A stretch of DNA of 64,000 bases from Dictyostelium discoideum (taxonomy: Eukaryota), in assembly GCA_000004695.1 (NCBI GenBank), contig CM000153.2, forward strand, positions 5,312,001-5,376,000. The letters run 5' to 3'. Under the pieces are notes generated by a model, which searched no databases, was not told the DNA's origin, and saw only the letters and a list, made by a program, of their open reading frames with translations. The position numbers and the translations under genes are program-made. The stretch's first letter is position 1. Each line of letters starts with the position of its first letter. This document shows, one piece after another, positions 4,583 through 63,464 of this stretch.

Positions 4583-4639
4583 GAAATTTTATTTTTTGTT
4601 TTAATTATTATTTTATTTATTTTTATTATAATTATTGTT

Positions 4640-4672
<33 letters not shown>

Positions 4673-4813
4673 CAATTTTTTTTTTTTAAATTTTTTTCAA
4701 TTTTTATTTGTTTATTAAATTGTAATTTTATTTTTTGTTTTAATTATTATTTTATTTATTATTATTGTTAATTTTTTTTTTTTTTCAATTTTTTTTTTTT
4801 TAATTTATTTTTA

Positions 4814-7651: not shown

Positions 7652-7797
7652 AATTTAATAAACTTTATTTGTTTTTTGAAAAAAAAAAAAATTTAGGGTC
7701 AGTGATTTTTTTTTTTCACTACGCTACTGTAGTGAAATTAAATAATAAAATTCACTACGCTACTGTAGTGAAATTTTATTGAAAATTCCCTACAACA
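7652..7797. repeat. Right terminal inverted repeat of the transposon
   Basis: Reverse complement of 4437..4582. Confidence 0.9.
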
Positions 7798-10700
7798 ATC
7801 ACCACCTGCAATATATTTATATTCAGTTTTATCATTTGGATCATTTTTTGTTGTTGTTGTTGTTTTTGCTGTTATTGGTAATAATTTTTCATCCATTTCT
7901 TTTTTCTTTTTATCTAATGAATCATTTATAATTTGATAAACCATACCAATTGAATTTGATTGAATTTGTTGAATTGTAATAAGATGTGGAGACCATTCTT
8001 TATCGACCCAATTCTTTAATTGTACTGTAATTAATGAATCAGCACCATAGTTTATCATTTTAATATTTGTATTAATTTTTGATGGATCAATTGAAAGAAG
8101 TTCAGAAACTTTGTTTAAAAATTTATTTTTTACATTTGTTGATGATGATGATTGATTGGTATCATTTTCCATTGATATTGAATTATCAACATTAATTGGA
8201 TTTAAAATGAAATCAAATTTTTGATGAAGTTTTTGTTTAAAACTTTTGAATAATGGCCAATTGAAATTATTAACAAATGCATTGGTTGGCATATTTGGAT
8301 TTTGAATTTGTAAATCTAAAGTACCCAATAATTGATTTGGTGATATTAATTCAACACCTTGACCACCTAGTACTGCTTCAACAAGTTTATGTCTTGAAAG
8401 ATAACCTCTATCACTTACACCACCAATGTTAATTGTAAATGATGGTAATCCAATTGATTTACGATATTGTGATAACGAATCCACTACACAACATGCTGAA
8501 ACATAACTACATTGATCAAATGAACCTAATACTGAAACTACTGATGATGCTAAAATGAAATTAATAATTTTCCAATCTCTTTTAATTGATAAATTATGTA
8601 AATTAACTGCACCAAACGTTTTTGCACTATGCGAAACATTTAAACTATTCATATCAATATCTTTAAGTTTTTTATTAATTTGTAAAGCTGCAAAATGAAA
8701 TATTGAATCAATATTTGTAATTGTTGGATTATCTTTTAAAACTTGATCAATTGTTTTATTAATTAAATTCCAATTACTAATATCACATTTTTTGAAATGA
8801 TATTTAATTTTATTGTTATTATTATTATTATTATTGTTGTTGTTATAATTCATTAAAAATTCTAATTCCCATTTTAATGATGATTTTGAAAGAATAATTA
8901 TATTTTCAACAGTTGAATTATATTTTGTTATCCATTTTAAAACTTCTAAAATTAAACCAGTTTGACCTGTAACCAATACATTTTTACCAAGATTTTTAAT
9001 TTTATAATCTGATTTTAATATTGAATAATCAATCATTGATTCTTTTTCAATTAATTTATCTATGATATCAGTATCATGTGAAATTACAATTTTACCAACA
9101 TGTTTTCTTTCTTTAATTGATTCAATTGATTTTTTAATATTTGAATTTGAAAATTCTGTAATTGGTATTAAAGCATTTAAAGTTTCATTTTCAATTGATT
9201 TTGAAATTGACTGTAATAATTTCTTAATTGTTGATTTTCCAACTTTTAAAATTTCAATACTATTATAACCAATATTATATCTATATCTACTATTATCAAT
9301 AAATTCATTTGGATTTAAATGAGTAGTTGTTAAATCTACAATTCTACCTTTTGGATTTAAACATTTAAAATTTGTATCCATAAATTCACTTGATAAAGTA
9401 TTAATAATTAAATCAACACCATGAGTTTCATAACCTAATTCAATTAATTTGTTTTTAATTTGTTTTTGATAATTTGTGTCTCTTGTTGAATAAATTCCAG
9501 TAATTAAATCACCATAGGTATTAATTAGATATTGTTTCTTTTCTTCTGATCCAACTGTAACAAATATTGGTGATGAATGATTATTTGATTTTAATATTTC
9601 CAATCCTGATAATCCAACACCACCAGATCCTGAATGAATTAATACTGATTCTTCATCTCTTAAATTACCAACATCATATAAACAATAAAGTGATGTTGAA
9701 TAAACTGCTGGAATTGAAGCTGCTTGAACATGTGTAATCTTTGATGGTTTATGACATGCTAATAATGAATCAATAATAATATGAGATGATGATGTTTCAT
9801 ATGCAATACCATAAACTTGATCACCAACTTTAAATTCTTTAGATGATTTAATTCCAACACGACTTACTACACCAGAAAAATCAAAACCAATACCAGCTTC
9901 ATTTACTTTTATCATTTCATTATATTTCAAATAATCTTTATAATTTATACCAGTTGCTTTAACTTTTACTTCAATTTCATATGGTTCTAAATCAATTTGT
10001 TTTGAATTTAATTGATATTCAAAATGTTCATCTAATTTTGAAACTAATTGATCTTGTTGTTTTGATAAATCATGATATGATTCAGATTTATAAGAATTCT
10101 TTAAATTTTTTAATTCTTTTTTATACATTTCAAAATAAACAGTACCACTATTTTTTATATAAAATTCTCTTTGAATATTATTTTTTGGATTAATTAAATA
10201 ATCAATGGTTTTGAATAAATCCAAATCATTTGTTAATGAATCTTTATCAAAATCCAATGTAAATAATTGTAAAGTTGGAATTTCATCAAAGTATCTTGCT
10301 GCACCTAAAACTGATGATGATAAATAATTACTTGATTGTGAATCACATGTAATTAAAACATGAGTACATTTTGATTTTAATTCATATAATTTTTGATTAA
10401 TTTGAACATATTCAAATGTTACTGATTTAAAGTTTTCCAATGTTAATTGTTCAATTGATTTAATAAAATAAATGATTGAATTATTTGTAATTGTTGTTGA
10501 TAATTTGTAAAATTCTTCAATTGTTGATACTTTTATTATTTTACAATTATTATAATGATTTTCAAATTTATTAATTAATTGTTGTTGTTGGAGTTGTTCA
10601 TCTTGATAACAATATAAAATTACTTGATCAAATGTGTTTATTGTTTTTGGTTGTAATTTTAATGATGGTTTTTGAGCTTGAATAATAATTGATTTAATAT

Positions 10701-10803
10701 CACTATCAGATATACTTGAAGATTTAATCATTATATCAGAATTGAAATTACAATTAACCAATAAGTTTTTCAATGATTCTTTATTATTTTCATTATTTAA
10801 TAG

Positions 10804-10868
<65 letters not shown>

Positions 10869-13800
10869 CATTTATTATTAAATAACCATTTGGTGTTAAA
10901 ATTTGATAAATTTGATTTAATGAATATTCAATATCTTTTGTTAAATTTGAAATATTTGAAACAATAATTAAATCATAATATGATGGATTTAATTTTTGTT
11001 TTTCTAATAATGAATTATCAACATCTAAACCTAATGAACGATAAAGAATACTTAAATAACCCTTATCTACTTTTGATAATTCTAATTTAGCATCTTTTAA
11101 AATTGATGAATTATTATCACTCCATGTATATTCAATATCAATTTCATAATGTGGATTTTCTTCGAGTAATGAATTGATTTCATTCAATAATAAAGTTGAT
11201 TTTGATAAATTATTACCACCAAATTCTAAAATTCTAAATTCCATCTTTCTATTAATTAATGGTTTAATAGTTTCTATAACAACATTTGGAATTAATAAAC
11301 CATCATCTACTTGATTATTTTGATAAATTGATTTAAATTCTAATGGTGATTGAATTTGTGAATCTTTTGATTGAAGATATGGTGTATAAATAAAATCAGA
11401 TGGAGTTTCAATTAATAATGGATCTTTAACTGGTGTTAATGATTTAACTACCAAGTTATCAACTTCAATGATAACAGTACCATCTTCTAACATAACAACG
11501 ATAGATGAAGAGAGTAAATCATCAGATGGAGATGATTTTAAAGTTGAATAAATAAAGATACTTGAATGTTCATCTCTATTTTTTGGAATATTTGAAGCAT
11601 AATATCTTAAACCTTCAACTTTATCTGTTACAATTTTACAATTCTTTTGAATGTATAGAATAACGGTACCATGGAAACAAGCATCAATGAGTGGACAATT
11701 GAAAAATGATTGTTCATCATGAAAGTTTTCAGGTAATTCTAAGGATATTTCAGTTAATGAACAATTATCACCAATATAACATTCAACTACTTTACTAAAA
11801 ATACCATAAAAGTTTGCACCCAATTGAGTTTTCATTAGTGAATAAAATTCATCCCATGGAATTGATGATAAATTACATTTTGTTTGTTTAATATCTTGAA
11901 TATCCAATTTTTGTTTTTCTTCATGATAATTATCATTACTATTTAAGTGGAAATTAGAATTTGAAGTATTTATCCATTGATTATTCATTTCATCTTTTAA
12001 ATGAAATTGTGCTCTATATTCACTTTTACCAGTTTGATAAACATTTGTTTGTAAACATTGCCCAATACCATCGGTTAATACAAATGGTACCTTAAATTCA
12101 ATTGAATTAATTGTTAAATCTTGATTTGGATATAATTTAAATATATTATCAATATAACCTGTTCCTGGGAAATAACATTTATCAGATACATTATGACCTT
12201 TTAAATATTTGAATGCATCTTTTCCAGTATCAATTATTGTTTGATATGATTTAATAAATGGATTTGAATCTTGCATTGAATTACCGAGAATTGAAATTGG
12301 TGGTCCAATTAAATTATTTTTATGTTCAATTGATTTATTTAACCAATAATGTTGATCATCCCATTGATATAATGGTAAATTAAAATTACTAATAGCCTCA
12401 ATATTGCTATTTATATTATTAAATTGACATTTAAAATTAATATCATAAGCATCATCACAAAATAATTGTGAAATTGATTTTTGAAATTCTTCAACATCAT
12501 TCTTTTTCTTGTGAAGTGTTGAATAAACTGATATTGATTCACCATTTCTAAAGTATTGTGATTGTTTTGGAATCATTTGTTTTAAATAAAATGATAATGT
12601 TGGATGTGGTGCAATTTCAATGAATACAATATTTGAACCGATTTGATTATCTTCAATATGTTTATATAAATTTGAAATTGTTTGAGTGAATGAAACTGGT
12701 TTTGAAATATTATCAAAGAAATATTCAGAATCAAAAATAGTTGATTCATTAAATAAATTTGATGTAACTGTTGAAAATGTTGGAATAACAGGTTGACTTG
12801 ATTGAATATTTAAATTTAAAATATCATCTTTAATTATATTTTGACTACTTGTATGAAAACTTGATAAACTTCCTAACATTGCTGAGAATATTTCTTTTTC
12901 TTTTAATTCTTTTGAAATTTCATTTAAAATTTGTTCATTACCTGCGATTACAATTGATGATGGTGAATTATAACATGCAATTTCAATAGTTGGGTAACGT
13001 GACATATAGTTAGTTTTATATTCATCTGAACTAATGTTAATTGATAACATTTTACCTGACCCATTTGTTCTTATTTGTAATGTTGATCTATGATAAATTA
13101 AATAACATAATTGGTCAATATCAATCATACCTGAACAATAAGCAGTTGTTACTTCACCAAGACTATGACCCAACATAAATGATGCTTTTATACCCCAATG
13201 TTTATAAAGTTCATATAATGATACTTGAATAATTACAGTTGATGGTTGTGCCATTGTTTGTTCATGAACTGAACATTTATCACTATCTTGAATTGCTCTT
13301 AATTTCTCTAAAATTGAATATCCAAAATAATTTTTCATTTTATTATCTAGCATATCCATCGAATTTCTAAATACTTTTTCATTTTTATATAATTCTAATG
13401 CCATTGTATTATATTGTGATCCTTGACCACAAAATACAAATACAGTTATTGGATTATTATTTTTATTTGTAATTGTAATATTTGAAGAAGTACTACTTGA
13501 AGTTTGATATTTAACTTGATTTTCAACATTATTAAAATCATTCCAATCTTTTGCAACAATTACTGATCTTTGATAAAGTGATGTTGATTTATTATAAATT
13601 TGATTTTTAACAAATTCTTCAAAACTATATTGTGATTCATATTCTTTATTTTCAATAATTAATGATTGATATTTTTTTAATGATTCAACTGAATTTGCTG
13701 AAAATGGAATTAAATAATTATTTATTTTTATATTATTATGATTATGATTATGATTATGATTATTATTATGATTATTTATATTATTATTTATAGTATTATA

Positions 13801-14489
13801 ATTAAATTGAGATAATACTAAACAACAATTTGAACCAGTTGCACCAAAATTATTAACAACCATTGAAGTATTTTTAAATTTATTAAATGGAATTGGTTCA
13901 GTTACAACTTTTAAATTCCATTCTTTAAATTTAATTGCTGGATTTGGTGTTTTAAAATGAATATTTGGTGCAAAACATTTGTTTTTATACATTAAACAAC
14001 ATTTGATTAATGAAGCAATACCAGAAGCAGCTTCACAATGACCAATATTTGATTTAAATGATCCAATTAATAATGGAGTATCAGTTGAACGAGTATCTTT
14101 AAAAACTTTTGAAATACCTTCAACTTCAATTGGATCACCAGTTGGTGTACCAGTGCCATGTGCTTCAACATAATCTATATCAGATGGTTTAACAGTTCCA
14201 TTGGTTGATTGAATTGCATTTTTTAAATTTTCAGATTGTGAAATTGATGATGGTGAATAGAAATTTGATTTATCAGAATAACCAATACCATCAACATTTG
14301 CACTTGCACCATTTATTGTACAATAAATTCTATTACCATCTTTAATTGCATCTTTTAAATTCTTTAAAACCACAACACCAATACATTCACTTCTTACATA
14401 ACCATCAGCTGATGCATCAAATGATTTACATCTACCATTTGATTTACTTAATATATTCAATGAAGAATATGCTTTAAAAAAGTAAGAGT
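7738..14489 (-). CDS. Type I iterative polyketide synthase, exon 2 (KS C-part, AT, DH, ER, KR, ACP); the reading frame now runs into the transposon TIR and stops at 7738
   Basis: Motifs GHSLGE (AT), HNVSDKCYFPG (DH), HSGSGGVG (ER), [10 protein letters not shown] (KR) and YGADSL (ACP). (CAA)26 poly-Gln tract at 10803..10867. The last 23 codons (DCCREFSIKFHYSSVVNFII*) are encoded by transposon TIR sequence. Confidence 0.85.
10803..10867 (-). repeat. (CAA)n microsatellite encoding a 26-Gln tract inside the minus-strand PKS
   Basis: (TTG)21 on the plus strand; the paralogous position in the plus-strand PKS reads NEQQPNNENNENNE. Confidence 0.9.
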
Positions 14490-14566
14490 CTAATAAAATT
14501 AAAAAATTTAATTAATAAATAAATATAAAGATAAAATTAAAAAAACTATTAAAAAAAAATACATAC

Positions 14567-15230
14567 CAAGTAATATATTAACACCACCAACAATTGACAT
14601 TTTTGATTTTTTATTTTTGATTGAATCATATCCTAATGCGATTGCATTTAAAGATGATGAACATGCAGTATCTAGAGTTATTGAATTACCATGAAGATCA
14701 TAACAATAGGAGATTCTATTTGAAATCGCATGATTTAAACTTGAGAATACATTTGATTTTACTTCATTTTTATTGATATTATGATAGTCACTTTCGGTAC
14801 AACCAATGAAAACCGAAGTATCTGTACCTTTGATTGAAATTGGATCAATTAATGAATCTTCTAATGCTTCCCATGTACATTTTAATAATAATCTTTGAAT
14901 TGGGTCAATGGTTGGTGCTTCATTTGGATTAATACCAAAAAAGAGTGGATCAAATGATTTAACTTCATCCAATGGTAATAGTCCTGAATAATTATTTGCA
15001 ATTTCATGATTTTTGAAAAAGTTATCATTGAATCTTTCTGATGTTTTCACTACACCATCGAAACCATTTATTAAATTATTCCATAATGTTTGAGGTGTAT
15101 TGTTTCTTTCATTTTCAATACTTCCACTTGGTAATCTAAAGCCAACACCAACAATTGCAACTAAATTTTCTTCAACATGTTTATCATCAACTTGTAAAAT
15201 TTCTGCTTTATTTATTTTATTTTGTTTCAT
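14567..15230 (-). CDS. Same PKS, exon 1 (KS N-terminus; ATG = complement of 15228..15230). Intron 14490..14566 (77 nt, GTATGT..AG, phase 1)
   Basis: [12 protein letters not shown]...[13 protein letters not shown]...[35 protein letters not shown] then GTATGT donor. Exon 2 resumes D-SYFFKAYSSLNILSKSNGRCKSFD, parallel to the plus-strand paralog. Confidence 0.75.
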
Positions 15231-16049: not shown

Positions 16050-16886
16050 TTAAAAATATTTTTTTTTTATTCTTAATAATGGAGTATTATTATTAATATT
16101 AATAATTCCATCAGTACCATTTTCATAAGAAATTTTAAAAATTCCATTTGTATAGTAATAGAAACCTTCGTCGAATTTTAAAAAAAATACAAGACCAGTT
16201 AATATATTTGAAAATTCTACGAAATAATTTGCAGAATATTTCAATTGACCAACTGAAATTGGATTTAAATTAAAAGAGAAAACATTTACAAAATCATTTA
16301 AAGAATTTGTTTTTTCTTGATATATTAAAACACCATTTTCAGTTTCACTTTCAATGATTCTATATATTTTTGTATTATTTGTTAATTTTGGAGATTGACC
16401 AATTTCATTGCCAATTTCAATTGGAAAATAACAAGATAGAAAAGTGAAACAAGCATCAACCAAGTATTTTTTATTCTTAAATTCCATTACATTGCAATAA
16501 TGAAGTCCGATATTTGGGTATACCAAATTCTCTCCACCGTCAATTGCTTTAATTAATTGAACTTTTATTCCAAATTCTTGTAATAACATACCAAATAATA
16601 TATTATGGTTTAAACAAATATTGCCAACCTCTTTCTCTATCATTGTTTCAACAATATAATCCATATCGATTGTTGGTCCATCTTTTAAAACGTCAATATT
16701 ATTATATGGAAAATGTTCTGCAAATTTCACCATTAACAATTCAAAATCATCCAAACAATTTAATTGAAAATCAATTTCTAAATTTAATTTTGGTAATATA
16801 ATTTCTTTAAAATTATATTTTTTATTTGCTAATTTTAATTCTTCATAACTGAAATGTAAAAAATAGTCTTTGTCATTAATTTCCAT
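16050..16886 (-). CDS. Arylamine N-acetyltransferase (NAT)-fold protein, 278 aa, in the spacer between the divergent PKS genes
   Basis: Catalytic-triad geometry matches NATs: Cys91 in VGNICLNHNILFG (cf. RGGYCFExN), His128 in GLHYCNV, Asp143 in YLVDACF (cf. YIVDAGFG). Cys-to-His spacing is 37 and His-to-Asp is 15, as in human and bacterial NATs. Confidence 0.65.
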   Translation of the reverse strand: MEINDKDYFLHFSYEELKLANKKYNFKEIILPKLNLEIDFQLNCLDDFELLMVKFAEHFPYNNIDVLKDGPTIDMDYIVETMIEKEVGNICLNHNILFGMLLQEFGIKVQLIKAIDGGENLVYPNIGLHYCNVMEFKNKKYLVDACFTFLSCYFPIEIGNEIGQSPKLTNNTKIYRIIESETENGVLIYQEKTNSLNDFVNVFSFNLNPISVGQLKYSANYFVEFSNILTGLVFFLKFDEGFYYYTNGIFKISYENGTDGIININNNTPLLRIKKKYF

Positions 16887-18550: not shown

Positions 18551-19238
18551 ATGGATAATAGTTATTTAAATAATCCCCAATTTGATATTAATAATGGTAA
18601 TAAAGAAGTTACAGATGATGATAATAATAAAAATAATCAAGATAATTTAGTAGCAATTGTTGGTGTTGGTTTTAGATTACCAAGTGGTGAAAATGAAAGA
18701 AATAATACACCTCAAGCATTATGGAATAATTTAATAAATGGTTTCGATGGTGTAGTGAAAACATCGGAAAGATTCAATGATAACTTTTTCAAAAATCATG
18801 AAATAGCAAATAACTATTCAGGACTATTACCATTGGATGAAGTTAAATCATTTGATCCACTCTTTTTTGGTATTACTCCTAATGAAGCACAAACTATAGA
18901 TCCTCATCAAAGATTATTATTAAAATGTACATGGGAAGCATTAGAAGATTCATTAATTGATCCAATATCAATCAAAGGTACTGATACTTCTGTTTTCATT
19001 GGCTCTTCAACAAATGATTATCTTACATTAAATAGAAATGAAGTAAAATCAAATGTGTTTGGTAGTATGGCTCATTCAATTGCAAATAGAGTATCCTATT
19101 GTTATGATCTTCATGGTAATTCAATAACTCTAGATACTGCATGTTCATCATCTTTAAATGCAATCGCATTAGGATATGATTCAATCAAAAATAAAAAATC
19201 AAAAATGTCAATTGTTGGTGGTGTTAATATATTACTTG
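18551..19238 (+). CDS. Type I iterative PKS (plus strand), exon 1; intron 19239..19324 (GTATGT..AG, phase 1)
   Basis: [10 protein letters not shown]...[20 protein letters not shown]...GGVNILL then GTATGT donor; paralogous to minus-strand exon 1. Confidence 0.8.
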
Positions 19239-19324
19239 GTATGTATTATTTTTAAAATTTTTTATTATATTTTATTTTTTACAAAATTATTAATTAAAAT
19301 TATATTATTATTTTTTTTTAAAAG

Positions 19325-22300
19325 ACCCATATCCATATAAGGCATTCTCAATTTTGAATATGTTAAGTAAATCAAATGGTAGATGTAAATCATTTGATGC
19401 ATCAGCTGATGGATTTGTTAGAGGTGAATGTATTGGTGTTGTTATTTTAAAGAATTTAAAAGATGCAATTAAAGATGGTAATAGAATTTATTGTACAATA
19501 AATGGTGCAAGTGCAAATGTTGATGGTATTGGTTATTCTGATAAATCAAATTTCTATTCACCATCATCAATTTCACAATCTGAAAATTTAAAAAATGCAA
19601 TTCAATCAACCAATGGAACTGTTAAACCATCTGATATAGATTATGTTGAAGCACATGGCACTGGTACACCAAATGGTGATCCTGTAGAAACCGAAGGTAT
19701 ATCAAAAGTTTTTAAAGATACTCGTTCAACTGATACTCCATTATTAATTGGATCATTTAAATCAAATATTGGTCATTGTGAAGCTGCTTCTGGTATTGCT
19801 TCATTAATCAAATGTTGTTTAATGTATAAAAATAAATGTTTTGCACCAAATATTCATTTTAAAACACCAAATCCAGCAATTAAATTTAAAGAATGGAATT
19901 TAAAAGTTGTAACTGAACCAATTCCATTTAATGAAAATAAAAATACTTCAATGATTATTAATAACTTTGGTGTTACTGGTTCAAATTGTTGTTTAGTATT
20001 ATCTCAATTTAATAATACAAATAAACAAAAACAACAAATGAAAACAAAAATAAATAATTATTTAATTCCATTTTCAGCAAATTCAGTTGAATCATTAAAA
20101 AAATATCAATCATTAATTATAAATAGTAAAGAAAATGAATTAAAATATAGTTTTGAAGAATTTGTTAAAAACCAAGTATTTATTAAACCAACATCACTTT
20201 ATCAAAGATCTGTAATTGTTGCAAAAGATTGGAATGATTTTAATAATGTTGAAAATCAAGTTAAATATCAAACTTCAAGTAGTACTTCTTCAAATATTAC
20301 AATTACAAATAAAAATAATAATCCAATAACTGTATTTGTATTTTGTGGTCAAGGATCACAATATAATACAATGGCATTAGAATTATATAAAAATGAAAAA
20401 GTATTTAGAAATTCGATGGATATGCTAGATAATAAAATGAAAAATTATTTTGGATATTCAATTTTAGAGAAATTAAGAGCAATTCAAGATAGTGATAAAC
20501 GTTCAGTTCATGAACAAACAATGGCACAACCATCAACTGTAATTATTCAAGTATCATTATATGAACTTTATAAACATTGGGGTATAAAAGCATCATTTAT
20601 GTTGGGTCATAGTCTTGGTGAAGTAACAACTGCTTATTGTTCAGGTATGATTGATATTGACCAATTATGTTATTTAATTTATCATAGATCAACATTACAA
20701 ATAAGAACAAATGGGTTAGGTAAAATGTTATCAATTAACATTAGTTCAGATGAATATAAAACTAACTATATGTCACGTTATCCAACCATTGAAATTGCAT
20801 GTTATAATTCACCATCATCAATTGTAATCGCAGGTAATGAACAAATTTTAAATGAAATTTCAAAAGAATTAAAAGAAAAAGAAATTTTCTCAGCAATGTT
20901 AGGAAGTTTATCAAGTTTTCATACAAGTAGTCAAAATATAATTAAAGATGATATTTTAAATTTAAATATCCAATCAAGTCAACCTGTTATTCCAACATTT
21001 TCAACAGTTACATCAAATTTATTTAATGAATCAACTATTTTTGATTCTGAATATTTCTTTGATAATATTTCAAAACCAGTTTCATTCACTCAAACAATTT
21101 CAAATTTATATAAACATATTGAAGATAATCAAATCGGTTCAAATATTGTATTCATTGAAATTGCACCACATCCAACATTATCATTTTATTTAAAACAAAT
21201 GATTCCAAAACAATCACAATACTTTAGAAATGGTGAATCAATATCAGTTTATTCAACACTTCATAAGAAAAAGAATGATGTTGAAGAATTTCAAAAATCA
21301 ATTTCACAATTATTTTGTGATGATGCTTATGATATTAATTTTAAATGTCAATTTAATAATATAAATAGCAATATTGAGGCTATTAGTAATTTTAATTTAC
21401 CATTATATCAATGGGATGATCAACATTATTGGTTAAATAAATCAATTGAACATAAAAATAATTTAATTGGACCACCAATTTCAATTCTCGGTAATTCAAT
21501 GCAAGATTCAAATCCATTTATTAAATCATATCAAACAATAATTGATACTGGAAAAGATGCATTCAAATATTTAAAAGGTCATAATGTATCTGATAAATGT
21601 TATTTCCCAGGTGCAGGTTATATTGATAATCTTTTAAAATTATATCCAAATCAAGATTTAACAATTAATTCAATTGAATTTAAAACACCTTTAATATTAT
21701 CAGATGATAATGGTCAATTTTTACAAACAAATGTTTATCAAACTGGTAAAAGTGATTATAGAGCTCAATTTCATTTTAAAGATAATAGAACAAATGTATG
21801 GGTTCAAACATGTACTGCTAATTTTCAATTATATAATAATGGTAAAGTTGATAAATTAAATTTAGAAGAAATTAAATCAACAAAATGTAATTTATCATCA
21901 ATACCATGGGATAAATTTTATCCACATATAAAAAATAGAACTGGTTTAAACTATAAAGACAAATTTCAAAATACAATTGAATGCTATCTTGGTGATAATT
22001 GTTCATTAACTGAAATATCATTAGAATTACCAGAAAACTTTCATGATCAAGAATCATTTTTTAATACACCAATTTTAGATATTTGCTTCCATGGTTCAAT
22101 TGTTTTAATTAAGGATAATTGTAAACTTGTTTTGGATAAAATTGATGGTTTTAAATTATATACATCAAACATTCCAAAAAATAGATTTGATCATTTAAGT
22201 ATTTTTGTATATACAACTATGAAATCAACAAAATCAAATTCATACAATTCAACATACACAGTAATGTTAGAAGATGGTACTGTTATACTTGAAGTTGAAA

Positions 22301-25300
22301 ATTTAATATGTACATCATTAACACCAGTTAAAGATCCATTATTAATTGAAATTCCAACTGATATGTATTATACTCCATATCTTCAATCAAAAGATTCACA
22401 AATTCAATCACCATTAGAATTTAAATCAATTTATCAAAACAATCAAGATAATGATAGCTTATTAATTCCAAATGTTGTTTTAGAAACAATTAAACCATTA
22501 ATTAATGAGCAAATGGAATTTAGAATTTTAGAATTTGGTGGTAATAATTTATCAAATTCAACTTTATTATTGAATTCAATCAATTCATTACTTGAAGAAA
22601 ATCCACATTATGAAATTGATATTGAATATACATGGAGTGATAATAATTCATCAATTTTAAAAGATGCTAAATTAGAATTATCAAAAGTAGATAAAGGTTA
22701 TTTAAGTATTCTTTATCGTTCATTAGGTTTAGATGTTGATAATTCATTATTAGAAAAACAAAAATTAAATCCATCATATTATGATTTAATTATTGTTTCA
22801 AATATTTCAAATTTAACAAAAGATATTAAATATTCATTAAATCAAATTTATCAAATTTTAACACCAAATGGTAATTTAATAATAAATGAACAACAACCAA
22901 ACAATGAAAATAATGAAAATAATGAAGATTCATTGAAAAACTTATTGGTTAATTGTAATTTCAATTCTGATATAATGATGAAATCTTCAAGTGTATCTGA
23001 TAGTGATATTAAATCAATTATTATTCAAGCTCAAAAACCATCATTAAAATTACAACCAAAAACAATAAACACTTTTGATCAAGTCATTTTATATTGTAAT
23101 CAAGATGAACAATTCCAACAACAACAACAATTAATTAATAAATTTGAAAGTCATTATAATAATAATTGTAAAATAATAAAAGTATCAACAATTGAAGAAT
23201 TTTATAAATTATCAACAACAATTACAAATAATTCAATCATTTATTTTATAAAATCAATTGAACAATTAACATTGGAAAACTTTAAATCAATAACATTTGA
23301 ATATGTTCAAATTAATCAAAAATTATATGAATTTAAATCAAAATGTACTCACGTTTTAATTACATATGATTCTCAATCAAGTAATTATTTATCATCATCA
23401 ATTTTAGGTGCAGCAAGATACTTTGATGAAATTCCAACTTTACAATTATTTACATTTGATTTTGATAAAGATTCATTAATTAATTTAGACATTTCGGTTA
23501 TAGATCATTTGATAGATCCAAAACAAAATACATTGATTGAATTCTTTATTAAAAAAAATGGTAAAGTTTATTTTGAAAGATTTAAAAAAGGTTTAAAGAA
23601 AAATTCTTTTAAATCAGAATCATATCATCAAATTACAAATGAACAAGAAATTTTAATTTCAAAATTAGATGAAAATTTAGATTATCAATTAAAATCAAAA
23701 GATTCAATTTTAAAACCATATGATATTGAAGTAGAAATTAAAGCAACTGGTTTAAATTATAAAGATTATTTAGTATATAGTGGTTTAATAAAATTAAAAG
23801 GTGATAGTGTTGATTTTGGTCTTGATTTTTCTGGTAGAGTTAGTCGTGTTGGAATTAAATCATCAAAAGAATTTAAAGTTGGTGATGAAGTTTATGGTAT
23901 TGGACAATCAACATCATCATCTCATATTATTATTGATTCAATGCATGCATGTCATAAACCATCAAAGATTACACATGTTCAAGCAGCTTCAATTCCAGCA
24001 GTTTATGCAACTTCAATTCATTCTTTATATAATATTGGTAATTTAAGAGAAGGAGAATCAATTTTAATTCATTCAGGATCTGGTGGTGTTGGATTATCAG
24101 CATTGGAAATATTAAAATCAAATAATCATTCATCTCCAATATTTGTTACAGTTGGATCAGAAGAAAAGAAACAATATCTAATTAATACCTATGGTAATTT
24201 AATCACTGGAATTTATTCAACAAGAGATACAAATTATCAAAAACAAATTAAAAACAAATTAATTGAATTAGGTTATGAAACTCATGGTGTTGATTTAATT
24301 ATTAATACTTTATCAAGTGAATTTATGGATAGCAATTTCAAATGTTTAAATCCAGAAGGTAGAATTGTAGATTTAACAATTACTCATTTAAATCCAAATG
24401 AATTTATTGATAATAATAAATTTAAATATAATTTTGGTTATCATAATATTGAATTATATTATTGTGAAAAGCCAACAATTAAGAAACTATTACAGTCAAT
24501 TTCAAAATCAATTGAAAATAATACATTAAATTATTTAATTCCAATTACAGAATTTTCAAATTCAAATATTAAAAAAGCAATTGAATACATTAATGAACGT
24601 AAACATGTTGGAAAAATTGTAATTTCTCATGATACAGATATTACTAATAAATTAATTGAAAATCAACCTAAAATTGATTACTCTTTATTGAAATCAAATT
24701 ATAAAATTAAAAATCTTGGTAAAAATGTATTGGTTACAGGTCAAACTGGTCTAATTTTAGATATTATAAATTGGATTATGAAATATAATTCAACTGTTGA
24801 AAATATAATTATTCTTTCAAAATCATCAATGAAATGGGAAATGGAATTTTTAATTAACAACAATAAGACAAAAATTAAATTCTATTATAAAAGATGTGAT
24901 ATTGGTGGTGATTCAGATTCAATTAATAAAACATTTGATAAATTGTTTACAGAAAATCCAACAATTACAAACATTGATTCAATATTCCATTTTGCAGTTG
25001 TACAAATTACAAGAAAAGTAAAAGATATTGATATGAAATCATTAAATATTTCACATGATGCAAAAACAATTGGTGCAATTAATTTACATAATCAATCAAT
25101 TAAAAGAGATTGGAAATTAAGTAATTTCATATTAGCATCTTCAATTCTTTCAAAAGTTGGTTCATTAGATCAATGTGGATATGTTTCAGCATGTTGTGTA
25201 CTTGACTCATTTTCAAAATATCGTTTATCTATTGGATTACCTGCATTATCAATTAATATTGGTGCTATGGGTGGAAGTGGAATGGTTGCAAGAAGTGAAC

Positions 25301-25779
25301 TTGTTGAAACTGTACTTAATGGTCAAGGTTATAATTTAACCTCAACAAACCAACTATTAGGTACAATTGATTTATTAATTCAAAATCCTGGTCAAGAATC
25401 AAATAATTTAATGGTTGGTAATTTTAATTTCCCAGTTTTTAATAATTTCAAACAAAAGATTCATCAAAAATTTGATTTTATTTTTAATGCTCTTGATTCA
25501 AACTCTGAAAATGGTGATGGTAGTAATATCAAAAATTCAACAAATATTAAAGATAAATTTTTAAACAAAGTATCAGAATTTCTTTCAATTGATTCATCTA
25601 AAATTAATAATGATATTAAATTAATGAATTATGGTGCTGATTCATTAATTACTGTTCAATTAAAGAATTGGGTTGATAAAGAATGGTCTCCAAATTTAAT
25701 TACAATTCATCAAATTCAATCAAATTCAATTGGTATGGTTTGTCAAATTATAAATGATAATTTTGAAAAAAAAAAATAA
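19325..25779 (+). CDS. Type I iterative PKS (plus strand), exon 2: KS-AT-DH-ER-KR-ACP, ending 26 residues after the ACP with no release domain (total 2380 aa)
   Basis: Same motif order as the minus-strand PKS. Ends ...LMNYGADSLITVQLKNWVDKEWSPNLITIHQIQSNSIGMVCQIINDNFEKKK*. Confidence 0.85.
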
Positions 25780-25967: not shown

Positions 25968-26337
25968 CTCACTGAGAAAATTATCAAACGTTATCAAATA
26001 AATAAGTTGATTTGATAATAACGTTTCTTTAAAGAAAAAATAATAAAAAAAAAAAAATCAATTATTATCAAATTATTAAGTTAATAAAAAGAAACGTTAG
26101 GTAACAAAATCATTCCCAAAGATATTTCAGATTTTTTTAATTCAACGAATTACAAATTTTTATTTTTTTAAATTTTTTTTTTCAATAAAAAAAAGAAAAA
26201 TCATCAAACAAAAAAACAAGATATTTTCCATGGTTTTTTTTTATTTTTTTTTTTTTTGCTTTTATATAAATAACGTTTATTTTTTTTTATTTTTTTTTAT
26301 TATTTTTTTATTTAAACTAAATAGTATAATAAAAAAA

Positions 26338-26401
26338 ATGGAACAAGAAAATAATAATAACAAAGACATAAAAACAATTGATAGTATCAATATCAATAAT
26401 G

Positions 26402-26472
<71 letters not shown>

Positions 26473-27834
26473 TTTGGTAGAAGGAACAGAAATAATAGAC
26501 CAAATGGTCAAAACCGTAGAGACTATGACGATAGAAGAAAGATTATATCTGAAAAACCAGAAAATCAACCAAGAAGTAATAATTATCATGGTAAAGGTAG
26601 AAGATACAATGATAGAAATAATTTAAATGTAGCTTCGTTGAATCAAAATGAATCCGTGGCAACTTCCAATACAACAACAACAACACCAACAACAACAACA
26701 CCAACAACAACACCAACAAACATAAATTCGAGTATAGAGAAAATTGAAAAAACTACATTATCAATAAAAGGATGGGGAGATAGATTACCAAAAATTGGAA
26801 AAACAATAACTTTTTTAAATTTTGAAAATTTAAGTATTCCAATTCCACAAGGTTATATACCAAATACAGTTACAAAAATTAAATTTGGTAGAATGTATAA
26901 TTGTGAATTATCGGTTGGTTCAATTCCAAATAGTGTTACCGATATACATTGGGGCAAAGGTGCAATTCCATTAGGAGGTGTGATACCAAATTCAGTTATA
27001 AATCTATCATTTAGTGATCAATTCTATCAAGATATAATACCAGGTAGTATTCCAAACTCTGTTAAATCAATTACCTTTGAAAATAGAATTGGTATTACTA
27101 AATTTGAAAGAGCCTATCATGGAAACCAAGTTAATAATGAAATCTCACCAAATGTTACACCAGTTTTACAAATTGGATCAATTCCATCATCAGTAACAAG
27201 TATTGAATTTGGTAGTTATAATTTTATTCCAAGTCCAGGTTTACTTCCAGATAGTATTAAATTATTGAAATTTGGTAAAGATTATACCCAAAAACTTTCA
27301 ATTGGATCAATACCAAACTCTGTAACAGATTTAGAACTTTCAAATAACAAATTCACATCAGAAATGATACCACCATCAGTAATAAATCTTTCATTTTATG
27401 AATGTTTTGGTGATTATGTTAATGTTGGCTCAATTCCAAATACAGTTAAATCAATTTCATTTGGTGCAAATTATAATAAACCAATCATTCAAGGAATGAT
27501 TCCACAATCAGTTGAAACAATAATATTTGGTAGAAATTTCAATAATACAATTTCACAAGATTCATTACCAAAAAATCTTAAAACATTAATATTTGGTAAT
27601 AGTCATAATCAAGTTTTTCAACCCAATGTATTACCACCATCATTAACAACTTTAGAATTTGGTGAAAGTCAAAGATTTAAAATTGATGAAAAATCATTAC
27701 CATCATTAAAAAACTTTAAATATAATAATAAAATATATGCTCAAGAAATTCCAAATCCGCCACCACTCCCAGAAGGTTCAGGTTATTTTTATTTGCAATT
27801 TAAACATTATAATGATAGAGGTTATAAAGATTAA
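26338..27834 (+). CDS. FNIP-repeat-containing protein (about 498 aa)
   Basis: About 12 tandem ~22-aa repeats of the form IPNSVTxLxFGxxFNQ (e.g. SIPNSVTDIHWGKGAIPLGGVIPNSVINLSFSDQF). N-terminal poly-Asn. The ORF-track start at 26230 is poly-T junk; the real ATG is at 26338. Confidence 0.8.
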
Positions 27835-43377: not shown

Positions 43378-45627
<2,250 letters not shown>

Positions 45628-45663
45628 TTTATTATTATTTAAATTTTAAAAAAATTTAAATTG

Positions 45664-45705
<42 letters not shown>

Positions 45706-46265
45706 TATTTAAATATTTTTTATTTATATAATTTACAAATGTAAAGATAGAATGAAGATAATTATTTTTATTTACAAATTTTACAATAATTTTAATTTAT
45801 AAAAAAAAAAAAAACAATAAAAAAAAATAAAAAAAAAGATATGTAATGTTGTTTGTGAAAAAAAAAAAGTTTAAAATAGATTTTTTGATTGAAAAAAAAA
45901 AAAAATTAATAAAAAATTTAATTAAATCTTTTGATATTGTAAATTTAACTTTAATTGGTGGAGTTTTTTTATTTTTATTTTTTTTTTTTTTTTTTATTTT
46001 TTTGAAATTTTATGAAAAAAAAAAAATAAAAAAAATAAAAAAAATAAAAAAAAATAAAGATATATATAATTGGTTGAAATTATGTGTTGAATTGTTTTTA
46101 TTTACAGATATATTGTAATTTTACAGTAATTAATTTTTTTTTTTTTTTTTTTTTTAATGATGAGAAAAAAGGAATTTAATTTTTTTATTTAATTTTTTTA
46201 TTTAATTTTATTTATTTTTTTATTTTTTTTTTTTTTTTTTGTTATTTTATTTTTAAAATTATTTT

Positions 46266-46301
<36 letters not shown>

Positions 46302-47560
46302 CAAAAATTTGATCACCCCCAATTTTTTTTTTTACCTTTATTATCAAAAAAAATATTGTTACTCATTCAATGTGGTTTCAAATATAAACACATTGTTTTG
46401 TGGTGGTGTGGGGTTATTAATATAATTTTTTAAAAAAAAAAAAAAATAATAAAAAAAAATAAAAATATTGGCCTCAACCAAATCACAAATAGAATTGAGT
46501 GTTTGTTTTCAAATTATAGTGTGAACCTTTTATGAAAATAAATTAAAATTGTTTTTATCACCACTAAATCCTTGAATCAAAAAAAAAAAGATTAAGTTAT
46601 TTTTAGCATATCAAAAAAAAAAAAAAAAAAAAAAAATTATAAAAATAAATAAATTAAAAAAAATAAAAATAATAAAAAAAGATATAAAAAGAAAAAAAAA
46701 AAAATTAAAATTATTAATATGGAATTACCATTTTTGTTGCAAAGCTTTATTTTGAAAATATTTTAAAAAAAAAAAAAAAAAAAATTATATGATGATATTT
46801 TTAGTAAGATTAATTGAGATTTTTTTTTTTTTAAAAAATATCTATATTTTTTTTTTAAAAGATCCAATGAATTGAAAATTTTAAATATTTTTTTTATTAA
46901 AAAAAAAAGATATTAAAGTGGATTTTTAAATTATCAAATAACTAAATAGGGTAAAATCTTTAAAAAATAATCTCAATTCAGTGTTTTTTTTTTTTTTTTT
47001 TTGCCATTTAAATTAAAATAACAATTGACTAGATTTTTATACCAATTATTTAATTTTAAATCTATCCAATTGATTTTTTTTTTAATTAAGGCTAAAAATT
47101 TAAAATTATCCATTTTTTTTTTTTTTTTTTTTTCCTTTTTAAATATAGGCTTTAAAAAATTGTTAAAATAATAAATAAAAAAAATAAAAAAAATAAAAAT
47201 AAAAAAAATAAAAAAAATAAAAAATTTGATATACAATTAAATAACAAAAAACTTGTTTTTTTGAACTTAATATCTATTTTTATATAAAAAAATAAATAAA
47301 TAATTATTAAAAAGAAAATGTGGTTTTGAAAAAAAAAAAAAAATAAAAAAAAAAAATAGTCCAAATCAGGTGGTTTGGATAATTTTATTTTTTTTATTTT
47401 TTTTTTATTTTTTTTTTATTTTTTTAATAAAAAAATAAGAAAATGATTTTTTTTTATTTTTTTTTATTTTTTATTTTTTTTTTATACATAAAATTTTTTA
47501 TATTTTTTTTCTCAACAAATAATAAAAAACAAATAAAAAAAAAAATTAAAAATTAAAGAA

Positions 47561-48251
47561 ATGATATTATTATATAATAATCATTTTGATGAAAACGAGA
47601 TAGAAAAAGGAATGAAAGAAATCAATAATAATAATAATATTAATATTAATAATAATATAAATAATAATAATAAATCACAAAATATAAAAAATGAAATGTA
47701 TACAATTAAAAAAAAAGAAATTATTGATATTAAATTAATAAATGATGATAATAATAACAATAATAATAATAATAGTAATTGTAGTTGTAGTAAAGAATCA
47801 TCAACTTCTTCAACATCAATTATATCACTGTCATCATTTTTTTCAAGTATAAATAATATTTATGATGAAGATGAAATTGAAAGAGCAATTGGTTTAAAAA
47901 AAAGTAATAAAATTTATAATAATACAATTATTTATAGATCAACAAGTCAACATAAAAATTTAATACCATTATATGAACATTATTATAAAGTTTCAAAATC
48001 AACTAAATTAATTTTTACAACAGATCAATTCGACCCAAAAGTTGATATAGATAATGATAATTTAATTGTATTTGCCAAAGGATTAGAACCTTTAATTCAA
48101 GAGAATTTTGAATTTTATTGTTCAGAATTAATTCATCTCTTTGAAATTTTAAAAAAACATAATGCAAATAATATGAAAATTTTATTATTATCATTAAATT
48201 CACAATATAATTCATTTTTAAATTCATCATTAATTGGTTTAATTAAATATT

Positions 48252-48316
<65 letters not shown>

Positions 48317-48712
48317 CAATTCATTTCAATTGATTTCGATAATAATTCATATTATAATAATAATATTTTCAATAATATTGAATTAATTATGACGAATTTT
48401 ATTAATTATAATAATATAAATAATAATAATATAAATAATAATAATAATATAATTCAAATTATAAATAATAAAATATTTAAAGAATATAATCAAATGATTG
48501 ATGAAAATTTTAATAATAAAAATAAAATCGATAAGGAAGATGATAAATTTGGTAAGACAGTATTAATTACGGGTCAAGAAGGTTTATCATTACAATTTTT
48601 AAAATGGATTATAAATAAAAGAAATACCAATATAAAAGATATAATTGTTGTATCAAAATCATCAATTGATTGGGAAATTGAAAAATTAATTGAATATTGC
48701 ACCACCAATAAT

Positions 48713-48786
<74 letters not shown>

Positions 48787-48928
48787 CGATAATCAAATTA
48801 CAATTCATTTCAAAAATTTAGATATTTCAAAAATGTATTCAATTAAAAATTTATTAAATCAAATTTATAAAGATAATAATATATCACCCGTTGAATCTAT
48901 ATTTCATTTCTCTAATAATAACAATATA

Positions 48929-49012
<84 letters not shown>

Positions 49013-49255
49013 TTTAAGAAATTTCATGATTGTAGTTCAAATGGTTCATTAAATCTACATCAAATATCAATTGAAATGAAATGGAATTTAAAAACATTTT
49101 TATTAAATGGTATGAATATTAGCAACAACAATAATAATAATCTTGGTGAAATTAGTTCAAATGAAGTTTTAGAATCATTAAATAATTACAGAAAATCAAT
49201 TGGATTATCATCAAGTTTAATAAAATGGTCACCATCAAATATTTATGATAGTAAC

Positions 49256-49289
<34 letters not shown>

Positions 49290-49351
49290 TTGAAATTATT
49301 GAATTTTTAATTAATAATAAAGAAAATTATTCAAATATTAGTATTTTGTAA
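47561..49351 (+). CDS. Stand-alone PKS-derived KR-like fragment gene (or pseudogene), extremely Asn-rich, 596-aa ORF
   Basis: KFGKTVLITGQEGLSLQFLKWIINKRNTNIKDIIVVSKSSIDWEIEKL ... ISPVESIFHFSNN and NLHQISIEMKWNLKTFLL..NNYRKSIGLSSS are collinear with PKS KR segments ([77 protein letters not shown]). Confidence 0.55.
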
Positions 49352-49509
49352 ATAATAAAAATAAAATAAATTTTTGTAAATTAAAATATTCTTTTTATTT
49401 ATTTAATAAAATAATAATAATAAATTGATTATAAATTTTGTTTTTTTTTTTTTTAATTTTGTTTTTTTTTTTATTTATTTTCTTTTACGAAGATTATTAT
49501 TATTATTTA

Positions 49510-49591
<82 letters not shown>

Positions 49592-49881
49592 TGATTTTGA
49601 AATAAGTAAAGACATTAAACTTGAAAAAGAATCACTCTTATTATTTAATAATTCAATTGCATAATTATAAGATTCATCTTTTGAAACACCAAATGCTTTT
49701 GAAACTTCTGTCGAACCTGTTTTTATAATGGTTGAATAAAGTGGAAAATCATTTTTTGGTGGGATTGTTCTTTTTTAAAAAAAATAAAAAAAAAAAAAAA
49801 AAATTATAATAATAATAATATTAATATTGTTTTTTTTTTTTTTTTTTTTTTTTCTCATGTATATTTTTAAAAATTTAATAA

Positions 49882-50514
49882 TTACTTTATAATTGGTGGT
49901 TCTAATTTAAAATTTGAAAAATTTTTAATTAAAATTGATTCAGGTTTATTTAATATAAAAGATTCTAAAGATTGTTGGGGTTGTCTTAAGATTTGAGTAT
50001 GAATGAAATTACGAACAGTTTTAAAATCAGTTTCTAAATAAAGTGCACCAATGAATTTAATTAAACAACGATATGAATAATGACTAAAATAAATTGATTT
50101 ATAAAATGAATTTGAATTAATTTGAAAACGAATAAATTCTGATAAACCAATATCTTTACAACGTTCTCTTAAAAAGTAAGAACTTTTAATTGATTCTCTA
50201 AACTCTTCAAATATTGATTGATCATTAAATGAAAATTCTGAATCTGAAATTGAATGTCTATAACATAATTCTCCAAAAAATCTTAATTTATTTTGTTCTG
50301 CTTCATTTTGTAAACTTGGACAATGTGTTAAACTATCAATTATAATTTTTGGAATTTCAAAGTCATCATTGCCATTTTTTGAAAATTTAATATTTAAATC
50401 TTTTAATAATTTTAATAAACTTGGTTTAAATTCTGTTTCCATATCTTCATTAACTTTTTTACCATATAATTCAGAGGTGGTGGTGGTTGTTGTTGTTATT
50501 GTTTTATCAATTTG

Positions 50515-50547
<33 letters not shown>

Positions 50548-50787
50548 TCCATTCGTTATTGTTATAACTTTTGAATCATTTATATCAATACCTTCAACAT
50601 CTAAATATAATGGTTCTAAATCATCAAATTGTTCGGTTGTTTTTATTATATTTTGAGTTTTTAAACGAATAAATCTTTTATTATTATTATTAAAATTATT
50701 AAAATTATAAAATATATTTTTATTTTCAATAAATAAATTTTTCCTAATATTACAATTATTTGTAATTTTAATAATATTTTTAATCAT
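49882..50787 (-). CDS. RNase III-domain-like protein (degenerate signature; possibly a mitochondrial ribosomal protein L44/L3-type)
   Basis: NKLRFFGELCYRHSISD (cf. ERLEFLGDA) and IKFIGALYLETD (cf. FEALIGAIYLD); basic N-terminus MIKNIIKITNNCNIRKNLF. Confidence 0.35.
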
Positions 50788-62000: not shown

Positions 62001-63464
62001 ATGAATAAAGAAATTTTTAATTCAAAATTATTTGAAAAATTAGATAAAGATAATTTAATTGAAAATTCAAGAGAATGGAGTAATGAAATTGATTCAACAT
62101 GGAATTATAATGATGTTGTTGGAATTTTAAAAAGTTGGGAATCATTAAATACAATTAGTTTAGAATATATTGATTCAATTGTAAATTGTTTAACAGAAAC
62201 TGGTAAAGATATTTTAATTAATGGATCACCAGAAGCAAAATTATATAATATTTTAACAGAACAAGGTATGTCACCAGCTGATGCCAATAAACAATTTGGT
62301 GCAACAGCATTTGGATCAGCCAAAAATAAAGGTTGGATTGAAGTTAAAGCTGGTAAAATCTTTAAAAAAGTTGAATCAATTAATGATATTGTTAAATCTG
62401 ATCTTTCAATTCCAGACCTAAGTAAATTGGATTCGAAAACCTTAGAACAATATAAGAAATCAAGATTTATTGAAGAAAAGAAATTATCATATTATCGTGT
62501 TACCAAAGGTGAACAATATAATAAACGTTCAAAGGAATTATCAGATTTAACAATTGAAATGTTAAAAGATGATTCATGGGAAAAAGAATCATTCAAAGTC
62601 AATATCAATGCAATGGGTGTTGTACCAGAACAAGGTTATCGTCATCCATTGAATAAAGTAAAGAATGAATTTAAACAAATCTTTTTAGATATGGGTTTTG
62701 AAGAGATGCCAACTTTTAATTTCGTAGAGAATGGATTTTGGAATTTCGATGCTCTCTTTCAACCACAACAACATCCAGCTCGTGAACTTCAAGATACATT
62801 TTTCATAAAGGATCCAAAGACAAGTCATGATTTCTCTGATGAATATTGTGAACGTGTTAAACAAGTTCATAGTGTTGGTGGTTATGGTTCATTGGGTTGG
62901 ATTTATGATTGGAAACTTGAAGAAGCTGAAAAGAATATTCTTCGTACTCATACCACTGCTGTTAGTGCTCGTATGTTATATAAATTGGCTCAAAATGGTT
63001 TTAAACCAAAGAAATACTTTTCAATTGATCGTGTTTTCCGTAATGAAACTTTGGATGCAACTCATTTAGCCGAATTTCATCAAGTCGAAGGTGTTATTGC
63101 TGATGTTGACATTTCTTTAGGTCATTTAATTGGTGTTATCTCGGAATTCTTTAAACGTCTTGGTATTGATAATGTTCGTTTTAAACCAGCTTTCAATCCA
63201 TATACTGAACCATCAATGGAGATTTTCGGTTATCATCCAATTCTTAAACGTTGGGTTGAATTGGGTAATTCTGGTATCTTTAGACCTGAACTTTTATTAC
63301 CAATGGGTATTCCTGAAAATGTTAGAGTTGCTGCTTGGGGTTTATCACTTGAACGTCCAACTATGATTAAATATGGTTTAGATAATATTCGTGCAATCTT
63401 TGGTAATAGTATTAATGTAAACTTTATTAAAAATAATCCAATTTGTATGTTTGAATCAAAATAA
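62001..63464 (+). CDS. phesA: Phenylalanine--tRNA ligase alpha subunit (cytoplasmic), 487 aa
   Basis: Class II aaRS motifs FRNETLDATHLAEFHQVEGV and GLSLERPTMIKYGLDNIR. FWNFDALFQPQQHPAR is identical to the human FARSA block. Confidence 0.9.
   Translation: MNKEIFNSKLFEKLDKDNLIENSREWSNEIDSTWNYNDVVGILKSWESLNTISLEYIDSIVNCLTETGKDILINGSPEAKLYNILTEQGMSPADANKQFGATAFGSAKNKGWIEVKAGKIFKKVESINDIVKSDLSIPDLSKLDSKTLEQYKKSRFIEEKKLSYYRVTKGEQYNKRSKELSDLTIEMLKDDSWEKESFKVNINAMGVVPEQGYRHPLNKVKNEFKQIFLDMGFEEMPTFNFVENGFWNFDALFQPQQHPARELQDTFFIKDPKTSHDFSDEYCERVKQVHSVGGYGSLGWIYDWKLEEAEKNILRTHTTAVSARMLYKLAQNGFKPKKYFSIDRVFRNETLDATHLAEFHQVEGVIADVDISLGHLIGVISEFFKRLGIDNVRFKPAFNPYTEPSMEIFGYHPILKRWVELGNSGIFRPELLLPMGIPENVRVAAWGLSLERPTMIKYGLDNIRAIFGNSINVNFIKNNPICMFESK

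Follow-up and report, generated by a model that had tools for sequence, protein, structure and literature searches.

The 64,000-nucleotide stretch of Dictyostelium discoideum DNA analyzed here (assembly GCA_000004695.1, contig CM000153.2, positions 5,312,001 to 5,376,000; hereafter the window) holds, at 47561-49351 of its forward strand, a single-exon open reading frame (ORF) that we interpret, with a probability of about 0.65, as a lineage-restricted, domesticated and non-catalytic pseudo-ketoreductase acting by binding or scaffolding. The gene, known to date solely from the group of D. discoideum, D. citrinum and D. firmibasis, descends from a type I iterative polyketide synthase (PKS) and encodes the ketoreductase (KR) unit only, that is the two subdomains KRs and KRc joined by a short linker, without the enoylreductase (ER), the acyl carrier protein (ACP) or any other PKS domain. 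Its catalytic residues have been lost and the loops of the active site and of ACP docking overwritten by variable tracts of polyasparagine (poly-Asn), while the core that determines the fold is kept, as is much of the Rossmann motif. The gene is under purifying selection, which is strongest in the non-catalytic KRs half.

The window has a GC content of ~20% and is rich in poly-Asn, and its PheRS-alpha ORF at 62001-63464 is identical to the protein of D. discoideum AX4. An earlier reading of the letters alone, the original prediction, had described an intact ORF of 596 codons with collinear KR similarity, inflated by poly-Asn and poly-(AAC) tracts and located ~22 kb from a pair of PKS genes, and had proposed either a decaying relic of a third PKS or a domesticated stand-alone ketoreductase-like gene. 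The descriptive part was borne out: the frame is open throughout its 596 codons, from the ATG at 47561 to the stop at 49349-49351, asparagine accounts for 190 of the 596 residues (32%) with eight runs of at least five, and the end of the nearest PKS ORF at 25779 lies 21.8 kb away. A stop-free run of this length has a chance probability of ~1.6e-30 at the local GC content of ~14% (~0.109 stops per random codon), and according to the ORF list no long ORF of the opposite strand overlaps it. The start codon is ambiguous, as several genome annotations, among them the models of three genomes (L006, L007 and L008), use the alternative M18 at 47612, from which a protein of 579 aa results. A gene with exactly this 579-aa product of 47612-49351 is annotated on a 5.58-Mb contig of the D. 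discoideum assembly GCA_054883475.1. As for the start region itself (47561-47611), Met codons further upstream also occur in D. citrinum and others, together with a conserved HFDE.EIEKG peptide. Literature searches returned no description of the gene.

Relationship to polyketide synthase ketoreductases

The Pfam family PF08659 (KR) matches residues 333-451 with 28.9 bits at a gathering score of 22.6, above the membership threshold for the KR domains of PKS and fatty acid synthase (FAS) type within the short-chain dehydrogenase/reductase (SDR) superfamily. In BLASTP, residues ~312-551 align with the KR region of the window PKS at 7738-14460(-) (E=2e-23, 35% identity), and the KR region of the second window PKS at 19354-25779(+) is found with E=4e-20. 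The motifs on which the original prediction relied were recovered in collinear order, with ITGQEGL facing VTGQTGL, together with SKSS, (V/I)(E/D)SIFHF, NLHxxSI(E/K) and YRKSIGL. The proposed KR similarity was thereby significant upon formal alignment, with the TGQEG motif kept and the catalytic Lys, Ser and Tyr lost.

Beyond the original prediction, the N-terminal half (residues 116-310) is likewise derived from a PKS and represents KRs, the KR structural subdomain. In a comparison of the orthologue profile with the solved structure of D. discoideum Pks16 (PDB 9nju), profile positions 317-530 match Pks16 residues 2210-2418 with 96 bits (E 1.5e-26), and positions 127-317 match residues 1656-1841, weakly if taken alone (7.7 bits). 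Both window PKSs give the same two-stretch pattern, with KRs matches of 15.7 and 14.9 bits (E about 1e-6; the 15.7-bit match, at residues 1194-1433 of PKS_A, has E 3.8e-7), and in other dictyostelid PKSs the KRs scores rise to 47 bits. In an alignment of 14 sequences, collinearity begins with the first strand of KRs and continues through the final strand of KRc, where the ORF ends without an ACP, its C-terminal IEIIEFLINN..NISIL aligning with LLGTLDLxIQN...(L/I)(I/V) of the PKSs. Both subdomains are thus homologous to and collinear with the KR didomains of the type I iterative PKSs of Dictyostelium, as represented by Pks16, the window PKSs and those of other dictyostelids, and residues 116-310 and 330-596 constitute KRs and KRc (the catalytic-type subdomain), respectively, of a complete KR didomain.

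On the forward strand, the N-terminal low-complexity extension (residues 1-115) spans 47561-47905; it has no PKS match in the profile searches and a predicted local confidence (pLDDT) below 30. KRs, or psi-KR, to which the profile matches extend, follows at 47906-48490 with a poly-Asn insert at 48254-48316, and KRc, which comprises the Pfam, BLASTP and Pks16 2210-2418 matches, at 48548-49348. The linker between them (residues 311-329, 48491-48547) lies at the position where the PKSs carry their ER: the two matched stretches are separated by ~330-370 residues in Pks16 (1841 to 2210) and in PKS_A (1433 to 1767), and by a linker of ~20 residues in the ORF. A Pfam scan of the ORF yielded no ADH/ER match and no domain besides KR, and tblastn with both window PKSs detected no further PKS-like sequence near the ORF or in its flanks. 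The PKS remnants for which the original prediction had suggested a search of the flanks are thus missing, and we therefore consider the ORF to be free-standing. Neither the ORF nor its flanks, nor the single-exon models in seven genomes, provide a cognate ACP or membership in a megasynthase.

The KR didomains of the Dictyostelium PKSs share TGQxG, SKSS, WE(I/L)E.LI, ESIFHF, NLHxxS, W.LK.F and YRKSIGL with the ORF. Unlike them, the ORF comes without KS, AT, DH, MT, ER and ACP domains, has its Lys, Ser and Tyr replaced and poly-Asn in its loops, and shows only ~32% identity. It is roughly equidistant from all sampled PKS KRs (28-35% identity, compared to a mean of 43% among the PKSs), so that no single parental PKS can be named. 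PKSs without an ER do occur in gene models of D. citrinum (P0038, P0055) and D. dimigraforme (P0034), and these resemble the ORF in their contiguous KRs-KRc, in a similar linker, its length in P0038 being like that of the ORF, and in aligning as a single stretch. They differ from it in having the full KS-AT-...-MT-KR-ACP array with Lys, Ser and Tyr intact, and they are no closer to it than PKSs that contain an ER. As such proteins exist, the ORF may derive from an ER-less PKS or may have arisen via an ER deletion of its own. Note that all 40 D. discoideum PKSs were modeled with an ER in the Pks16 study (PMC12828403); P0038, P0055 and P0034 may reflect repeated ER loss in the clade, or else artefacts of the gene models.

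Predicted structures point weakly in the direction of a KR fold. Two AlphaFold 2 models calculated from shallow alignments were poor (mean pLDDT 45 and 47), with values of 70-88 in the KRc core and ~50 in KRs, and showed beta-alpha-beta alternation in both halves. A Foldseek search with the better model retrieved Pks16 9nju at the top (E 2e-12), then human FAS KR (rmsd 4-5 Å, ~205-235 columns), and the first model matched bacillaene and macrolactin KR didomains.

The window PKSs themselves form a divergent pair at 7738-15230 (-) and 18551-25779 (+), each with a short KS-N exon, an intron-sized gap and a main exon. Their domain order is KS-AT-DH-(MT)-ER-KR-ACP, and their KR didomains are 78% identical to each other. 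A 278-aa ORF (16050-16886, -) lies between them, and a gene for a FNIP-repeat protein (26230-27834) follows the pair. An inverted repeat of 269 nt, at 4437-4705 (+) and 7529-7797, is 84% complementary, and its first 57 nt (4437-4493) encode the C-terminal 19 residues of the PKS at 7738-14460(-) with 100% identity. The element at 4437-4705 looks like a tiny duplicate of a PKS 3' end with its untranslated region, ~3 kb beyond that PKS, and would, unlike the ORF studied here, be a true PKS relic.

Active site and polyasparagine tracts

The equivalents of the catalytic positions in Pks16 were counted from the profile alignment. The catalytic Lys (Pks16 K2351) is represented by Ser492 (49034-49036), with Ser or Asn in the orthologues, the catalytic Ser (S2377) by Met518 (49112-49114), with Met, Ile, Ala or a gap, and the catalytic Tyr (Y2390) by Glu530 (49148-49150), which is invariant in six aligned orthologous ORFs. 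The three residues are present in all 11 aligned dictyostelid PKS KRs, and all three are replaced in the ORF. The Asn of the tetrad, N534 (49160-49162; Pks16 N2394), four residues past the Tyr position, is the only survivor. As Lys, Ser and Tyr are all replaced, canonical KR activity is not expected for the predicted product.

In the nomenclature of modular PKSs, KRs missing both Ser and Tyr are termed 'C1-type' and are fully inactive (PMC7327777), and this double loss is what the ORF displays. C1-type KRs likewise have a KR fold devoid of the active-site Ser and Tyr and are presumed to be purely structural (PMC7327777). They are, however, located in cis in bacterial PKS modules, whereas the ORF is a separate eukaryotic gene outside any PKS module, with 22 kb between it and the nearest PKS, and in comparison to them it keeps the tetrad Asn and most of the Gly motif. 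This Rossmann Gly-rich motif, T337-G-Q-E-G-L342 (48569-48586; TGQTG[LI] in the PKSs), is kept in D. discoideum and D. citrinum and reads TGQND in D. firmibasis (G341D). Among the 63 columns that are conserved in 10 or all 11 of the PKS KR didomains, 42 are kept in the ORF, including T337, G338, Q339, G341, S365, S367 and D421; the 21 lost ones include every catalytic residue and the loop between Ser and Tyr.

Among the tracts are the triplet repeats (AAC)25, which is perfect (48713-48787), and (AAT)33 (48913-49012), in line with the inflation originally described. The sites of the tracts are non-random: in KRs, RYF is followed by one, and further tracts follow beta4 (FHFS), separate the Ser position from that of Tyr, and occupy the lid behind the WG motif. 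The run N457-484 (48929-49012, (AAT)n) replaces the post-beta4 segment that leads to the catalytic Lys, where Pks16 has residue 2335; N522-527 (49124-49141) takes the place of the G..Q loop that connects the positions of the catalytic Ser and Tyr (G to N523, Q to N527); and N565-576 (49253-49288) replaces the lid after the WG motif (Pks16 lid 2428-2438). In Pks16 numbering the tract segments contain residues 1782-84, 2335, 2385-86 and 2428-38, which are KR residues near the active site and ACP contacts in AlphaFold 3 models (PMC12828403), and poly-Asn thus appears to overlie the active-site and ACP-docking loops of Dictyostelium PKSs.

The run N383-409 (48707-48787), which includes the perfect (AAC)25, follows the WEIEKLIEY helix, and no orthologue has a tract there. 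The repeat is missing from all orthologous ORFs, including those of two other D. discoideum assemblies, and therefore seems to be a very recent, genome-specific triplet expansion within a coding region. All poly-Asn tracts vary in length between genomes, the product of 540-629 aa always remaining in frame. In D. firmibasis, a run of 102 Asn residues occupies a different loop.

Orthologues and purifying selection

The gene is syntenic, uninterrupted and single-exon in seven genomes, of which three are from D. discoideum, two from 'D. cf. discoideum' and one each from D. citrinum and D. firmibasis; six of them carry orthologous single-exon gene models of 540-629 aa. The conserved neighborhood consists of a 749-aa low-complexity gene and TFIIF-beta on one side, and of an RNase III-like gene, vatA and PheRS-alpha on the other. 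The stops and frameshifts that a pseudogene would have acquired in some lineages are absent from all seven genomes.

Across 395 ungapped, poly-N-masked codons, Nei-Gojobori dN/dS ratios were 0.19-0.38 in all pairs, with dS reaching 0.41. By region, the ratio was lowest in KRs (0.10-0.20), followed by the KRc core (0.24-0.29) and the N-terminal extension (0.5-1.0); the controls PheRS-alpha and the upstream gene gave 0.13 and 0.18, respectively. As this method (NG86) is possibly biased in AT-rich genomes, neutral evolution was also simulated with the observed substitution spectrum and difference count. Not one of 2000 replicates remained free of stops, either for D. citrinum or for D. firmibasis. 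The non-synonymous fraction expected in the two cases was 0.84 and 0.86 (sd 0.03-0.04), compared with 0.60 and 0.63 observed, and the share of differences in third codon positions was 0.30 expected versus 0.54 and 0.49 observed. The neutral pattern of a pseudogene, with dN/dS around 1 and no bias among codon positions, is thus not found. Flanking DNA was rejected as a neutral contrast, as in blastn the AT-rich sequence between the genes is itself alignable across such closely related species.

The intact ORFs, the dN/dS ratios and the simulations therefore suggest that the gene is maintained for its protein product and is not decaying. A fragment of a third PKS that drifts neutrally and is by chance still open would account for the missing catalytic residues, for active-site loops overwritten by expandable poly-Asn, for the long branch that separates the ORF from any PKS KR, for the nearly neutral 115 N-terminal residues and for the lack of the exact protein in the protein clusters searched. 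It is contradicted by frames that are uninterrupted in seven genomes spanning a dS of ~0.4, by the simulations and the enrichment of differences at third codon positions, and by dN/dS values of 0.10-0.29 in the two domains, similar to those of neighboring housekeeping genes. The exact 596-aa ORF and the orthologous ORFs were both missing from the protein collection, the version starting at M18 alone being on record; nothing can be read from this, as called orthologues, those of L004-L007, are missing as well. The first alternative of the original prediction, a decaying relic, is thus not supported. Its second, the domesticated stand-alone ketoreductase-like gene, stands with respect to the free-standing, syntenic and selected gene, but not with respect to the word 'ketoreductase', given the replaced Lys, Ser and Tyr. 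In the same way the catalytic residues, whose absence was to identify a simple pseudogene, are indeed absent, but the conservation of the gene speaks against that conclusion.

Poly-Asn words swamped an initial search for homologues. In an exhaustive HMMER search of 1.84 billion representative proteins, 39 proteins reached E <=1e-3; the orthologue cluster scored 1050 bits, and all other matches, which were PKSs or fragments of PKS gene models, remained at or below 148 bits. Among these annotated proteins there was no close paralogue and no orthologue outside the clade. The D. purpureum protein P0012, which resembled an orthologue, was rejected: it represents the KR part of a PKS whose gene model is split, lies within a PKS cluster and is not syntenic.

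With respect to the surroundings, the downstream neighbor at 49882-50787 (-) is RNase III-like (faint PF14622 matches) and has orthologues P0013-P0017, with models whose length varies strongly between genomes (359-521 aa). Upstream of the ORF, a GC-richer island at 46300-46560 (gatcacccccaa..., ggtggtgtggggtt) is embedded in intergenic DNA of more than 85% AT; it has no Rfam match, as is true for 45600-49900 as a whole, and lies outside the D. firmibasis blastn alignment.

Possible roles of the protein

In the interpretation that we favor, a domesticated pseudo-ketoreductase, the protein would fold as an autonomous KR didomain in the manner of excised PKS KRs, which are notably stable as stand-alone proteins (PMC7327777) and from which we infer this property. 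It would then bind or scaffold non-catalytically, probably via surfaces away from the erased active-site face. Candidate surfaces are the constrained KRs and the conserved WEIEKLIE helix. The counterpart of the helix W371-EIEKLIE in Pks16 lies in KRc at residues 2272-2283 and makes up the DH/KR interface (PMC12828403); W371 is invariant, and the conserved Asn 2279 is changed to Glu or Asp in the ORF family.

Several points weigh against this interpretation. With no annotated orthologue outside the clade, the gene could be of recent origin and play a marginal role. The species compared diverged little, with dS up to ~0.4-0.57, and the constraint is that of a young clade only. Translation is deduced from the substitution pattern only, and the binding or scaffolding role is in turn something that we infer. 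Given the poor models, the autonomous fold is argued mainly from sequence. Finally, the nucleotide-contact positions TGQxG, S365/S367 and D421 are kept, and residual cofactor binding or an unconventional activity may follow from them.

Atypical SDRs of the NmrA or HSCARG type provide the analogy for a pseudo-SDR that senses its cofactor, binding NADP(H) without catalysis and acting as a regulator dependent on redox state or nucleotide. Such a function would be in line with the purifying selection and with a selective retention of nucleotide-motif positions next to the loss of the catalytic ones. It is at odds with G341D in D. firmibasis, with the large poly-Asn insertions right after beta4, beside the nicotinamide site, and with the lack of any sequence similarity to NmrA-type proteins in the Pfam scan and the HMMER search. 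Moreover, the constraint is strongest on KRs, which binds no NADPH in KR didomains (PMC7327777), and we consider the sensor unlikely.

A dead KR didomain might also act in trans on the PKS or FAS megasynthases of Dictyostelium and modulate their reductive programming or assembly, for instance by docking, with the conserved face of KRs or with the WEIEKLIE helix, onto a surface of DH, MT or ACP. A PKS as the partner is speculative, and trans action of this kind strikes us as improbable, to about the same degree as the sensor. The trans-enoylreductase LovC is an example of the trans-acting reductive partners of iterative PKSs. Partners of this type resemble the ORF as discrete relatives of a PKS reductive domain that are encoded apart from the megasynthase, but they are active enzymes in which the cofactor site and the catalytic site are intact, and their genes cluster with the PKS, while the ORF has lost its catalytic residues and is unclustered.

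Less probable still is that the protein remained an enzyme, a trans-acting reductase, epimerase or other catalyst that would use non-canonical Glu530 and Asn534 together with the retained NADPH site on PKS- or FAS-bound intermediates. The invariance of E530 among the six aligned ORFs and of N534, the kept TGQxG, S365/S367 and D421, and the purifying selection on KRc would fit this proposal. However, Lys, Ser and Tyr are all replaced, with Met, Ile, Ala or a gap at the Ser position and Ser or Asn at the Lys position among orthologues, poly-Asn of variable length stands in place of the lid, of the loop from Ser to Tyr and of the segment after beta4, and the Gly motif is broken in D. firmibasis. 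Both epimerization and reduction in PKS KRs require Tyr and Ser (PMC7327777). The decaying relic, contradicted by the intact frames and the selection on both domains, comes last and is very unlikely.

If the domesticated pseudo-ketoreductase is the correct interpretation, the gene would be a natural case of a single megasynthase domain that was excised, lost its catalysis and was then selectively kept, a new gene having arisen through exaptation of a domain in a genome with about 40 PKS genes. It would also amount to a natural loop-replacement experiment, in which poly-Asn took over the active-site and ACP-docking loops with the KR core, and KRs in particular, remaining under constraint, and which hints at capacities of the KR scaffold without its chemistry. 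Pipelines that mine for PKSs by counting KR domains would mis-score such a gene as a PKS fragment or a pseudogene. Should the protein indeed act on a PKS in trans, it would be the first pseudo-ketoreductase to regulate an iterative PKS as a free-standing protein, and binding of this kind would offer a handle on the control of reductive programming in iterative PKSs.

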